From: a virus
Taxonomy: Duplodnaviria > Caudoviricetes
Reading direction: 5' to 3' (one strand)
Length of the DNA stretch: 64,000 bases
IMG/VR virus record: IMGVR_UViG_3300037400_001903
Span: 1 to 64,000 of that record
Positions 24,505 through 42,972 of the stretch are shown one piece after another. Made by a program: the position numbers and the translations under genes. Position 1 is the first letter of the stretch, and each line of letters begins with the position of its first letter. The notes under the pieces were generated by a model. It ran no database searches and was not told the DNA's origin. It saw nothing but the letters and a program-made list of their open reading frames with translations.

Positions 24505-24777
24505 CTAATTTACCTCTACCCAGTCTTCAGCTAAGCAATCATTGATTGAAGGAACCCACATACTATGAGAACCATTTACCATTTTGATTTGTAAATAGGG
24601 TTCGCATCTAAACAAGTCCCCTTCTTTCAAGCCCCATGCTTCAGCAGATTGTTTATTACAAGGTATTCCATTAGGATAGCCTTTTTGATAAACAACAAAC
24701 ATGCCTTTGCCATTCCAACCTACCCTAGCAACTCTCTTGCCTTTCTTTAATAATTCTAGTGCTTCCCCAAAATTCAT
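24505..24777 (-). CDS. tad2: DUF2829 / Tad2-like anti-Thoeris sponge protein
   Basis: MNFGEALELLKKGKRVARVGWNGKGMF...PYLQIK...WVPSINDCLAEDW matches the DUF2829 pattern as recalled. Confidence 0.8.
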   Translation of the reverse strand: MNFGEALELLKKGKRVARVGWNGKGMFVVYQKGYPNGIPCNKQSAEAWGLKEGDLFRCEPYLQIKMVNGSHSMWVPSINDCLAEDWVEVN

Positions 24778-28380: not shown

Positions 28381-28399
28381 CCTGGGCGTTTACCCCAGG
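28381..28399 (-). other. Conserved hairpin copy 1 (CCTGGG-GTAAACG-CCCAGG)
   Basis: Perfect 6-bp stem; loop identical to copies at 29395 and 29929. Confidence 0.85.
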
Positions 28400-28413
28400 C
28401 TCATTGTACTTAT

Positions 28414-28442
28414 ATTATAGCACGAGGAATGACAAATGTCAA
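28414..28442 (-). promoter_or_regulatory. Consensus sigmaA promoter of the leftward small-gene operon
   Basis: TTGACA-17 nt-TATAAT, perfect consensus. Confidence 0.9.
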
Positions 28443-28458
28443 GGGGAATGACAAATGT
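28426..28458. repeat. Tandem 14-bp direct repeat GGAATGACAAATGT flanking the -35 box (operator-like)
   Basis: Exact copies at 28426-28439 and 28445-28458 (19-bp period); the ATGACAAA pair recurs at 29481 and 29500. Confidence 0.75.
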
Positions 28459-28740
28459 TTTTGAGAAAGTTGTCTAGGGGTGAATTGGAATTTTCCAAAA
28501 ATTCTGTGGGGCGTGCTAAAATTATATTATGTTGATGTTGTTTCCCAATTTAATATTATATTATGTTGGGTGTTGATGTTTAATTAGGGGGTGTCCCTCA
28601 ACCTAAAGAGAGACAAACCCAAAATATATTCAACAACTAAACAACTCAATAAGAATATATTTTACTAAGACTAAGGTATTATATATTTTTGTTAAGATAT
28701 AAAACTCATAGACATTTAGTCTATTTAATCTCATAGATAT

Positions 28741-29035
28741 TTTATCACCACCTCTCCGTAATTGATTTGCGAGAAGCCATAGTGGCGTTTGAACGTGTCA
28801 ATGAATGAACGGAAGATTAAGACTTGCTCGAGCAGTGATGTGACGTAAGAAAGATTCCCTGAGCACAGGAGAACATTCGCATGTCCAGAACCGTATCGAG
28901 ATGCCCCTGGTTGTTTGCTAGTGAGCTGATGGTCAAGAGGTAGCCTTGAATCAAACACGTTACCTACTGGTGGTGATAACTTTCTGTCCGCGATGGACGG
29001 ACACTTGGGATTCCCAAGCTTAAGTCATAGAAGCT
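28741..29035 (+). ncRNA. Putative structured RNA element 1 (GC-rich, multi-stem)
   Basis: 11-bp closing stem TTATCACCACC (28742-52)/GGTGGTGATAA (28969-79), several internal hairpins, two strong 3' hairpins; markedly more GC-rich than its flanks. Strand uncertain. Confidence 0.5.
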
Positions 29036-29063
29036 TAGTCCCTTAGAGGAGAAAGGAAATAAT

Positions 29064-29393
29064 ATGACAAAGAATGAATTTGTTTTAACTTTAACTATAG
29101 CTATTGGTGAGGCATTTGCACGTCACGTAGCTGCTGCAGCTAAGACTCCTGAAGGTAAGAAGCCAGCTTATGTTCGCCCTGTAAAGATGAAGAATTATTT
29201 TTCAGATGAAGATGCTCCAAGCTGTCTTGACTATGTACCTGACGAAGACTTCATATCAGTACGTTATTATGATGGAAATTATGTTATTACTTTTTTCGCT
29301 ACTAACGGATTCGATTTTACTATTAAACACAGTGACTATTGGTTATGTGTTAATAAGTTTACTGAATATTTCTTAGCTATCTATAAAGCCTAG
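29064..29393 (+). CDS. Hypothetical protein, 109 aa
   Basis: SD GAGGAG/AAGGA; codon style like the + strand cluster. Confidence 0.75.
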   Translation: MTKNEFVLTLTIAIGEAFARHVAAAAKTPEGKKPAYVRPVKMKNYFSDEDAPSCLDYVPDEDFISVRYYDGNYVITFFATNGFDFTIKHSDYWLCVNKFTEYFLAIYKA

Positions 29394-29394
29394 T

Positions 29395-29413
29395 GACGAG
29401 CGTTTACCTCGTC
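29395..29413 (-). other. Conserved hairpin copy 2 (GACGAG-GTAAACG-CTCGTC on - strand)
   Basis: Perfect 6-bp stem with a different sequence and the same 7-nt loop. Confidence 0.85.
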
Positions 29414-29422
29414 TGAAAATGT

Positions 29423-29920
29423 GGAACCCTAGTGTTACAAAATTGGTATAAGCTAGGTTCCATTTTAAAAGTCATCAGAAATGACAAATGTCTCTCATGA
29501 TGACAAAATAAAAACGGACCCTGGTGTTTTAAAATCAGTTAAGCTAGGTTCCTTTTGCACTTTTTCTGGCAAAAATGAGCTTGCACTCTTATTAGTCGAG
29601 TGCTAAAATATATTCTCACGTTGTTTTACTTCGGTTTGAGTGTGTGTTTTGTGTCGAGTGTGTTAGCATTTTGGTAAAAATACACCCTATCAAGCCTATG
29701 AAAACGACTGAAAATATATTGAAAACTCGTTTTTATATAAAAAAGTACCATTTGGAACCTAGCTTGTTCGAAATTGGAACGCTCAGGTCCGTTTTAAAAA
29801 AACTTTTTCTGTATATACATTTGTTCCCTAGACCTTTAAAACAATAGGGTATCATTTATTCTACAGGAAAAGTTTTTTGGATTCGGACCCTACTGCTTTA
29901 ATTTTAAAACAATAAGGTCC
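29423..29920. repeat. Cluster of degenerate ~38-bp quasi-palindromic repeats (CGGACC...AAGCTAGGTTCC); candidate origin/packaging region
   Basis: Copies at 29423-29461 (+), 29515-29552 (+), 29754-29791 (-), weaker copy at 29884-29920 (+) and a partial copy near 29824-29853 (-). Confidence 0.7.
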
Positions 29921-29928
29921 CCTATAAA

Positions 29929-29947
29929 GCTGGCGTAAACGGCCAGC
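29929..29947 (+). other. Conserved hairpin copy 3 (GCTGGC-GTAAACG-GCCAGC)
   Basis: Perfect 6-bp stem and the same loop, opposite orientation to copies 1 and 2. Confidence 0.85.
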
Positions 29948-35294: not shown

Positions 35295-35660
35295 ATGGCT
35301 CTTAATTTTAATTCTGTAGAGAATGCAGCTTACTATATGAAGTGTAGTCTAGAGAAGAAAGGTTATCAGGTTGAAGCTACATCTGCTCCTTCTTCTCTTT
35401 CTTCTGGTGCTAGCTCTGATTATAGAAAGTTTGTTTCTTTTTCTCAAAGAATTCTAGATGGTTCTGGAGTTCTTAAAGGTTATATAACTTATAGAGTAAC
35501 TTTAACTACTTCTGTTAAACGTCCTAAGTTTAGTAGTTATGAGTTATTCGATGAAGTTTATAACTCTGTTCATAAGGTGCATCTTAAAGATTATCCTACT
35601 GCTGATGATTGCTTTAAAGATGTATACAATTATATACTTGACCATTATAAAATGGTATAA
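35295..35660 (+). CDS. Hypothetical protein, 121 aa
   Basis: SD AGGAGGTG. Confidence 0.75.
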   Translation: MALNFNSVENAAYYMKCSLEKKGYQVEATSAPSSLSSGASSDYRKFVSFSQRILDGSGVLKGYITYRVTLTTSVKRPKFSSYELFDEVYNSVHKVHLKDYPTADDCFKDVYNYILDHYKMV

Positions 35661-35676
35661 TTAAGGAGGTAGAATT

Positions 35677-41071: not shown

Positions 41072-42586
41072 TTATGCAGTTTGACTTATTAAGATATAAG
41101 CTTTTAAGTAGCTGCAAGCTATTGATTTAGCATTTCTAATTGCTGTATCAATGCTTGTGAAGCTATCAATTATTCCTTTCTCATATAAATTAACTATGCA
41201 ATTATTTTGTACGTCTAGCCCACATTCTAAATCTTCTAGTGTCATACGCTTTGGCTTCTTCAAGCCTGCATTACTGATGATTTTCAAACAAGGTTCTTGT
41301 AATGCTTTTATAATGTGTTTGTATTTGCCTGATAAGGAAAGTAAATATAACGCTTTACCACCACCAGGAAGAATACCATCACGACAAGCACAACGAACTG
41401 CACCTATCGCATCATCTAATTTTAAACGAATCGTAGTGAATTCAGTAATAGTCTGTGCAGCAATCTTAATCTTAGTTACACCTGCTGTTAGGTTTGCTAA
41501 ACGTCTGTTGATAACATCAGTTCTGATTATTCCTGTGTTGAATTCCTTGTCTTCAAGTTCCTTCTTGTAAGACTTAACTCTCTTCTCAACTTCTTTTGAA
41601 TCAGAGCTGCAAAGTATTGTAGTCTTGTCTTGCTCAACAATAATCTTGTTAGCTGTTCCTGCATAAGCTAAACTGTAATCAGTTGTGCCTAGTGTAGGTG
41701 ATTGAATCTTACCGTTTGAACGAGCAGCAATGTCTAAGAATACTTCCTCTGGTTTAGAGTCGTTGATAAATACAATCATGAATCTTAATTTGTTTTGAAT
41801 AAGATTATCTAGTAATATCTTTAAGCTTTCAGGACTGAAATCTTTTGATAAGAAGAATACTAATGGTTGATTTGGATTTTCAATCGAGTCAAATAATACT
41901 TTGATTCCGTTTCGTGTTAAGATTCCTTCAGCTAATAGGATTAGTCTAGCATTTTCTGCTTCCCATTTTCCCTCATCATTGCATAGTTGTTTCATTTCAT
42001 CTGAGAAATATCCTGAATCAATAACCATACCATCAACATGTTCGATAGAAGATTCAGCTGACTTACGGTCATGCTCAATAATAACATTCATGTTTGAACC
42101 TGCATACTTGTAAGCTTCAGCTACTAGTTCACCGATGGCAGGTATCTTAGTTGTTATATTAGCAACATTTCTTACCATGTCAGGTGAATCAATAGGCTTC
42201 TTCATAGTTTGTAAATCCTTTAGAGCTGCTTCAACCTCTTCATTTATCATGTCAGATGCTTCTTGTGGATGCTTTCCCTTCTTTATTAGGTCTAGCCCAG
42301 CTTTGTATAGCTCATTAGTTAATAAAACTGTTAGAGTTGTACCATCAAAAGCTCTCTTCTCTGTGTTGTTAGCAGCCTCAATAATAGATAATGCAACCAT
42401 TCTTTCAAACTGGTCATCAAATTTCATGCATTCTTTCGCAACAGTAACACCATCGTCAGTTAGGAAAGGTCTAGAGAATTCATCCTGTAGAACTGCTAGC
42501 CTTCCCTTAGCTCCCATTGTAGGAGTAACGATGTCACTCATCTTTTGAAATGTTTCTTTTATTATCTTGATGTCTTTTGTCTTCAT
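41072..42586 (-). CDS. groEL: Phage chaperonin GroEL-like (Cpn60)
   Basis: TMGAKGR, TDDGVTVAKE, FDGTT, DGMVIDSGY, KLDDAIGA, GILPGGG, GIID; no GGM tail. Start re-assigned to ATG 42586 (SD AAGGA). Confidence 0.92.
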   Translation of the reverse strand: MKTKDIKIIKETFQKMSDIVTPTMGAKGRLAVLQDEFSRPFLTDDGVTVAKECMKFDDQFERMVALSIIEAANNTEKRAFDGTTLTVLLTNELYKAGLDLIKKGKHPQEASDMINEEVEAALKDLQTMKKPIDSPDMVRNVANITTKIPAIGELVAEAYKYAGSNMNVIIEHDRKSAESSIEHVDGMVIDSGYFSDEMKQLCNDEGKWEAENARLILLAEGILTRNGIKVLFDSIENPNQPLVFFLSKDFSPESLKILLDNLIQNKLRFMIVFINDSKPEEVFLDIAARSNGKIQSPTLGTTDYSLAYAGTANKIIVEQDKTTILCSSDSKEVEKRVKSYKKELEDKEFNTGIIRTDVINRRLANLTAGVTKIKIAAQTITEFTTIRLKLDDAIGAVRCACRDGILPGGGKALYLLSLSGKYKHIIKALQEPCLKIISNAGLKKPKRMTLEDLECGLDVQNNCIVNLYEKGIIDSFTSIDTAIRNAKSIACSYLKAYILISQTA

Positions 42587-42692
42587 AAATTCCTTTGTCT
42601 TCCTCTTCGTCACTATTTATAGCAGCTACTATAGCAATGGCTATGATGATTCCTATGAATATCACACCCATTATTATGTATACTTTAGTCAA
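42534..42692 (-). CDS. Unannotated 52-aa single-pass membrane peptide between groES and groEL
   Basis: TTG start after GAGG: MTKVYIIMGVIFIGIIIAIAIVAAINSDEEEDKG...DE*; fills the groES-groEL gap and overlaps both genes. Confidence 0.55.
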   Translation of the reverse strand: MTKVYIIMGVIFIGIIIAIAIVAAINSDEEEDKGIYEDKRHQDNKRNISKDE

Positions 42693-42972
42693 TAGCCTCT
42701 GCGTCCTTTACTAATACTAATATAATATCTTTAGCATTAACAGCGAATCCTTCGAATCCATCAAAGTTGATTGGCTGTGCTGCGAACATAGGATAGTAGA
42801 TAATATTACCTACCTTAAGACAATCCTTTCTGTTAGAGATAACAATCTCTCCACAGATGATGTCTTTCTTTCCTCTCTGTTCAGTTGCTGATACTACTAG
42901 TCCTGCTTTAGTAGTGACCTTTTCAGTTATCGGTCTGATAATTACATTTCCATTCAAACAATTATATTTCAT
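42685..42972 (-). CDS. groES: Co-chaperonin GroES-like (Cpn10)
   Basis: LNGNVIIRP, mobile loop TTKAGLVV, GEIV, LKVGNIIYY, KDII; 95 aa. Confidence 0.88.
   Translation of the reverse strand: MKYNCLNGNVIIRPITEKVTTKAGLVVSATEQRGKKDIICGEIVISNRKDCLKVGNIIYYPMFAAQPINFDGFEGFAVNAKDIILVLVKDAEAID

Follow-up and report, generated by a model that had tools for sequence, protein, structure and literature searches.

We analysed the first 64,000 nucleotides (the window) of the 77,211-bp tailed-phage record IMGVR_UViG_3300037400_001903, in which two multi-gene operons diverge from a shared control hub (Table 1). Read from left to right, the hub holds a hairpin (copy 1) in the leader of the leftward operon, a sigma-A-type promoter, a candidate structured RNA, a gene for a conserved 109-aa protein, a second hairpin (copy 2) just behind that gene, a series of quasi-palindromic 38-bp units, and a third hairpin (copy 3) in the leader of the rightward operon. 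The three hairpins had been proposed in a first-pass annotation, and re-reading the sequence confirmed their coordinates and strands as well as the perfect 6-bp stem around an identical GTAAACG loop in 3/3 copies. The accompanying description of the stems as fully different was overstated, given that copies 1 and 3 have the inner CTGG/CCAG in common and differ in their outermost and innermost pairs only. The stem of copy 2 differs from that of copy 1 at four positions and from that of copy 3 at three, with the G at position 4 kept.

Table 1. Features in and around the divergent control hub (window coordinates unless a relative is named).
Feature	Position	Strand	Sequence or remark
Tad2-like (anti-Thoeris) protein	24505-24777	-	Pfam E-value 1.4e-25; domain also in L037 and L062
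NUMOD1/HTH protein, 170-176 aa	25834-26358; in L037, 4419-4931	- (window copy)	
ATG of first leftward gene	28364-28362	-	
Ribosome site of first leftward gene	28374-28370	-	GGAGG
Hairpin copy 1	28381-28399	-	CCTGGG-GTAAACG-CCCAGG; 5' leader of leftward operon
Leftward sigma-A-type promoter (predicted)	28414-28442	-	TTGACA (28442-28437), 17-nt spacer, TGcTATAAT (28422-28414)
AATGACAAATGT copies	28428-28441, 28447-28460, 29480-29493		palindrome core TGACA-NN-TGTCA
Extended -10 promoter-like sites	28514-28522, 29601-29609, 35653-35661	+	TGnTAWAAT; precede + strand units
Structured ncRNA candidate, ~240 nt	28742-28979	+	between leftward promoter and 109-aa gene
109-aa ORF	29064-29393	+	TAG stop
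Hairpin copy 2	29395-29413	-	GACGAG-GTAAACG-CTCGTC as read on the - strand
Five 38-bp quasi-palindromic (dyad) units	29423-29922		GGAMCCTAG...CTAGGTYCC; between copies 2 and 3
Dyad unit U1	29423-29461	.	GGAACCCTAG...CTAGGTTCC; 9 nt from copy 2
Nearest rightward promoter candidate	29581-29609	+	TTGCAC, 17 nt, TGcTAAAAT; ~320 nt upstream of copy 3
Dyad unit U5 (last unit)	29886-29922		
Hairpin copy 3	29929-29947	+	GCTGGC-GTAAACG-GCCAGC; leader of rightward operon
GroEL gene	41072-42613		
GroES gene	42685-42972		

The hairpins are far from what chance would supply. The word GTAAACG has three occurrences in the window and no others in the rest of the record, against 18 of the reversed control word in the record as a whole, and all of them (3/3) form a loop closed by a perfect 6-bp stem. 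In total, the genome contains no more than 13 GC-rich hairpins with a perfect 6-bp stem and a loop of 3–9 nt. Among 300 dinucleotide-preserving shuffles of the genome, none (0/300) gave three hairpins with the same loop, and at most two perfect 6-bp/7-nt hairpins shared one loop, compared with the three observed. Allowing one mismatch in the loop added no further GC-stemmed copy, whether here or across the complete contig of the closest relative. The hub had no Rfam match at the gathering score, and a permissive scan returned chance-level matches only. Calculated stabilities were -9 to -13 kcal/mol for the RNA hairpins and -5 to -7 kcal/mol for their DNA counterparts.

The ends of the record overlap by 126 identical bases (1-126 and 77063-77188) and are adjacent in the contig of a relative, from which we conclude that the assembly is circular and essentially complete at ~77 kb. 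Therefore, the earlier remark that no other copy of the hairpin was found in the window can be extended to the whole phage: the three GTAAACG words in the record are the three known hairpins. CheckV estimated the record to be a 71% fragment, which is contradicted by the end overlap of this essentially complete circle. No cultured relatives were found, with no DNA match and terminase identity below 30%. Given the TTGACA/TATAAT promoters, GGAGG ribosome sites and a CIRCE-like operator, the host is probably a Firmicute. The public runs containing the phage are ruminant gut metagenomes, and no RNA datasets are listed among them. The phage encodes a giant protein of 5,870 residues with DFDSD at residue 3338, which by its sequence is a predicted two-barrel-type polymerase motif of the crAss-like rather than the T7-like type; the protein had no Pfam, PHROG or PDB sequence match, including to T7-like enzymes.

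Eight further hub sequences from ruminant-gut assemblies were available for comparison. L004/L036 came from IMG/VR and has a giant protein whose N-terminus is 41% identical; L037, L042, L060, L061, L062 and L064 came from Logan and ENA assemblies, where they were located via the 109-aa hub protein and the NUMOD1 protein near copy 1; and L044 came from a metagenome scan. Copy 1 was present in 9/9 genomes covering its site and identical in seven of these, the variants being CCCGAG-GTAAACA-CTCGGG in L061 and CCTGAG-GTAAACG-CTCAGG in L064, which represent orthologous compensating changes in the stem. Copy 3 was present in 7/7 genomes covering its site, identical in L004, L042, L044 and L060, with a GTAAACA loop in L037; L040 is cut short here by the end of its contig. 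Copy 2 was present in four genomes: the window, L060 and L064, which agree in stem, loop and orientation, and L042, in which the loop reads GTGAACG. It was absent from three of the eight genomes covering its site (L004, L037 and L044), and L061 keeps the stem around a different loop, CAAGTT.

Together, these hubs provided 14 hairpin instances, representing seven distinct sequences, for covariation analysis. All stem cells were Watson-Crick (42/42) and five of the six pairs changed on both sides, a pattern that collapsed in every slid control, so the proposal that the structure is kept while the stems covary was borne out. The loop was 7 nt long in 14/14 instances, with the consensus GTRAACR: positions 1, 2, 4, 5 and 6 were invariant, as was the fourth G-C pair of the stem, while position 3 was A or G and position 7 was G or A, the latter at two independent sites. 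None of the hairpin versions contained a G-U pair, which with seven distinct sequences is a weak test and suits DNA as well as RNA. The flanks had no conserved bases between copies or genomes. Given that the paired stem covaries, the loop and one pair are invariant, and the flanks are free, this is the pattern of a folded element read through its loop. The first-pass annotation had also linked the hairpins to the giant protein, and they were not lost from relatives carrying its gene, as L004, L037 and L060 have both.

Beyond these genomes, exact 17-mer matches in IMG/VR other than L004 fell in GC-rich unrelated phages and were judged to be chance, as was one in a 38-kb phage where the hairpin lies within a coding frame (N-W-G-K-R-P). 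Homologues of the neighbouring 207-aa gene (21 loci) and distant NUMOD1 homologues occurred in other contexts with no such hairpin, and operator and ncRNA pattern scans of IMG/VR and bacterial genomes revealed no new relatives. The GTAAACG hairpins are thus a real, non-random, conserved and covarying 19-nt element, which is restricted to the control hub of a narrow ruminant-gut phage lineage and belongs to no described family. As a statistically solid cis-signal marking both early operons of this uncultured lineage, the element is probably bound by something.

Copy 1 follows a predicted promoter with a 12/12 sigma-70-type score and an extended -10, and the arrangement TTGACA-17-TGnTATAAT/TATACT is kept in all nine genomes. 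The stretch between the -10 and copy 1 varies in length and sequence, with the hairpin starting 14, 17, 22, 24 or 26 nt past the -10, whereas the 19-nt hairpin itself is conserved. This places copy 1 at about +8 to +20 of the predicted host-polymerase transcript and 6–9 nt ahead of the ribosome site of the first gene across genomes (6 nt in the window). Copy 1 is therefore within the transcribed leader of a consensus, if predicted, sigma-A promoter, and given its position downstream of that promoter, it would be transcribed and is not needed as the operon promoter. Two AATGACAAATGT copies overlap the -35 of this promoter and are identical in most relatives, which suggests that these repeats are an operator. 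The operon itself carries early-type functions, including a Tad2-like anti-defence protein, so control in the leader would be expected there. The NUMOD1/HTH gene is the first gene after copy 1 in L004, L037, L042, L044 and L062, and lies several genes deeper in the window, L060, L061 and L064.

Copy 3 lies directly after the last dyad unit and 60–130 nt before the first rightward start codon, and forms the border between conserved hub sequence and variable genes, with conservation upstream of it and none downstream. As the first-pass annotation had stated, copies 1 and 3 face outward, each into one of the operons; their orientation is that of their operon, and both read GUAAACG in that sense. 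No sigma-70-type promoter was found directly upstream of copy 3. The nearest rightward candidate, with an extended -10, is overlapped by a CIRCE-like inverted repeat, TTGCACTC-N9-GAGTGCTAA, which is conserved in all relatives; a TAAAAT/TAAATT-type -10 is likewise kept in relatives, and no terminator-like sites were found between this candidate and copy 3. Extended -10 sites precede the + strand units, and the + strand cluster therefore appears to have host-type promoters. The dyad units between copies 2 and 3 may represent iterons or operators, and T-rich runs follow units 1–3. Either of these two hairpins lies 6–10 nt outside one such unit, and the pairing of U1 with copy 2 mirrors that of U5 with copy 3, both unit-plus-hairpin arrangements facing outward.

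Copy 2 begins 1–2 nt past the stop codon of the 109-aa ORF, with GTAAACG on the strand opposite to the gene, and the alignment of four genomes revealed no conserved leftward sigma-A promoter upstream of it. In + strand RNA, its loop would be exactly complementary to the loops of copies 1 and 3. For the 109-aa protein, AlphaFold gave a model with a pLDDT of 55.7. The ncRNA candidate upstream of this gene was conserved in eight genomes with compensatory changes, as in its closing helix, which reads CACCACC/GGTGGTG in the window, CACCAGC/GCTGGTG in L004 and CACCACG/CGTGGTG in L064; it had no Rfam match, and searches of bacterial genomes did not find it.

We tentatively favor the hypothesis that the hairpin is a protein-recognised, boxB-like leader-RNA element. 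A 19-nt stem-loop, with a 6-bp GC-rich stem free to covary and a GURAACR loop, would be made as RNA in the 5' leaders of two divergent multi-gene operons, where a phage or host protein would read the loop and the invariant fourth G-C pair and target either the transcript or the host polymerase making it. With a hairpin close to the start of both operons, the two transcripts could thereby be marked for processive elongation, protection or controlled translation. We infer all three components of this hypothesis, namely that RNA rather than single-stranded DNA is the active form, that a protein binds, and what follows from binding. The pattern is that expected of a protein-read hairpin, given that nothing is invariant except the loop and one stem pair, and that the flanks vary freely. 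However, since copy 2 is antisense to its gene and no leftward promoter was seen for it, the RNA reading covers only two of the three copies, and copy 2 does not fit unless there is an unseen leftward transcript. No arginine-rich, other RNA-binding or antitermination domain was found among 50 scanned ORFs of the window, including the three parts of the giant gene, no boxA-like flank was conserved, and no internal terminators were found in either operon. If the hairpin is a leader-RNA recognition site, it points to a new RNA-binding regulator in phages of Gram-positive hosts.

By analogy, the layout appears most like that of a nut-type leader hairpin. As in lambda nutL and nutR, two divergent early operons both have a short hairpin close to their start, one copy close to its promoter and the other further downstream, and as in boxB, the loop is conserved, the stem is variable, and host-type promoters (here predicted) transcribe the hairpin. 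In contrast to lambda, the loop in this phage is a 7-nt GURAACR rather than a GNRA-like pentaloop, and neither a boxA, nor an N-like arginine-rich protein, nor downstream terminators were seen. The phage also differs from lambda in having a third copy in the opposite sense behind a small gene, and apparently a Firmicute host.

We consider it unlikely that the hairpins act, as single-stranded DNA, as signals for a replication origin located among the dyads between copies 2 and 3. In such an origin, outward opening of the duplex would expose the lagging-strand template, on which the hairpins would form and recruit the phage primase or helicase-primase, similarly to ssiA and ssiB of RSF1010. No other reading accommodates all three orientations, - at both left copies and + at the right one, with no extra assumptions. 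An origin is also consistent with the A/T tracts and the five dyad units that separate copy 2 from copy 3, one unit standing 6–10 nt from each of these two hairpins, with the strictly Watson-Crick stems, and with the stability of the DNA hairpins (-5 to -7 kcal/mol). The hairpins on opposite strands, with dyad repeats between copies 2 and 3, may resemble the arrangement around the origin of RSF1010, a replicon with its own primase; the phage likewise has primase genes, one of the DnaG type and one for a D5_N/DUF5906 primase-helicase. The cumulative GC skew reaches its minimum at the hub, but this minimum is not independent evidence, given that the skew switch coincides with the switch in gene direction. 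Copy 1 at 1 kb from the dyads, the lack of copy 2 in three of the eight genomes covering its site, and the lack of DnaA boxes in the hub argue against an origin function, and we know of no precedent for ssi-type origin hairpins in tailed dsDNA phages. An ssi site of RSF1010 spans 40 nt and includes conserved single-stranded tails as well as a GTG start, whereas here only the 19-nt hairpin is conserved. The RepB' primase of RSF1010 reads the 5' tail and the GTG (PMC4434180), and no conserved single-stranded flank or start triplet of this kind accompanies the hairpins.

It seems rather unlikely that the hairpins are RNA elements with no dedicated partner, acting either at the 5' end as a stabiliser or processing mark, by which the mRNAs of both operons would be shielded from 5' decay, or through copy 2 as a kissing partner, whose CGUUUAC loop at the 3' end of the rightward ncRNA/109-aa ORF transcript would pair with the leader loops. 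A stable hairpin that is 5'-proximal in both leaders is what a stabiliser would look like, yet a stabiliser does not need an invariant loop, and the hairpin starts 8–20 nt from the predicted 5' end rather than at the end. The exact complementarity of the copy 2 loop in + strand RNA to the other two loops speaks for kissing and recalls the antisense loops known in the P4 CI and P1 c4 RNAs. However, the leader hairpins are unchanged in the genomes that lack copy 2 (L004, L037 and L044), and the loop change of copy 2 in L042 is uncompensated in the partner loops. Given the invariant loop, the persistence of the leader hairpins where copy 2 is missing and the uncompensated change in L042, we rank these possibilities below both recognition of a leader RNA by a protein and an origin function.

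The first-pass annotation had offered the hairpins as promoters or recruitment sites for the giant virion RNA polymerase, or as origin or antitermination signals. While recruitment or antitermination and origin signals are the functions ranked highest here, we are decidedly doubtful of the virion-polymerase promoters. According to that idea, the hairpins would be promoters, or parts of promoters, for an injected two-barrel enzyme, read as DNA hairpins with the loop CGTTTAC on the template strand. The DFDSD motif of the giant protein is consistent with this, as are the outward direction of all three copies, the lack of a sigma-A promoter directly upstream of copy 3, and the co-occurrence of hairpins and giant gene in the three relatives named above. 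N4 offers a parallel in principle, with an unrelated, T7-like enzyme: its P1–P3 promoters likewise number three, can fold as DNA hairpins, differ in their stems and stand ahead of early-type genes in a phage with a giant packaged RNA polymerase. The N4 hairpin promoters have a stem of 5–7 bp and a 3-nt loop, lie upstream of the start site and replace host promoters, whereas our phage has a 6-bp stem, a 7-nt loop and a polymerase of the two-barrel crAss-like type, and copy 1 falls within a host-promoter transcript. That consensus host promoter already serves the left operon, and the + strand units, too, are preceded by host-type promoters with an extended -10. A promoter at copy 2 would produce RNA antisense to both a conserved gene and a conserved structured RNA, and no bases are conserved near the would-be start site.

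Phage phi14:2, the one crAss-like phage known to have mapped virion-polymerase transcripts, bears on this point in two ways. In favor of the idea, its gp66 transcribes denatured DNA and its early promoters have no known motif; against it, the first 50 kb of phi14:2, which hold the early region, contain no shared-loop hairpin family, and the study of this phage likewise found no common motif upstream of the early transcripts (10.1101/2020.03.07.982082). It is improbable that the hairpins are start signals of a crAss-like two-barrel virion polymerase, read as extruded or single-stranded DNA, by which an unrelated enzyme converged on the N4 principle, with the host promoter serving a second, later mode of expression. 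If the signal is a DNA hairpin, it would provide a phage origin signal of a new kind or else the first promoter of a crAss-type virion polymerase. The hairpin is short enough (19 nt) for direct oligonucleotide or reporter tests.

Other readings were discarded: an intrinsic (Rho-independent) terminator is excluded by the lack of a T run after any of the three hairpins on either strand, a double-stranded palindromic operator is excluded because the arms covary, and an anticodon-arm mimic was dropped because position 37 would be C. The T4-type PeSL elements are similar in that a stem-loop is coupled to an early promoter at the borders of conserved and variable cassettes. In PeSL, the stem-loop stands ahead of the promoter and serves as a terminator or recombination motif, whereas in this hub the hairpin comes after the promoter and lacks a U tract.

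Elsewhere in the window, the phage carries GroES and GroEL genes (Table 1). The more distant homologues of the NUMOD1/HTH protein adjoin an SNF2 helicase and a PolA module in other phages.
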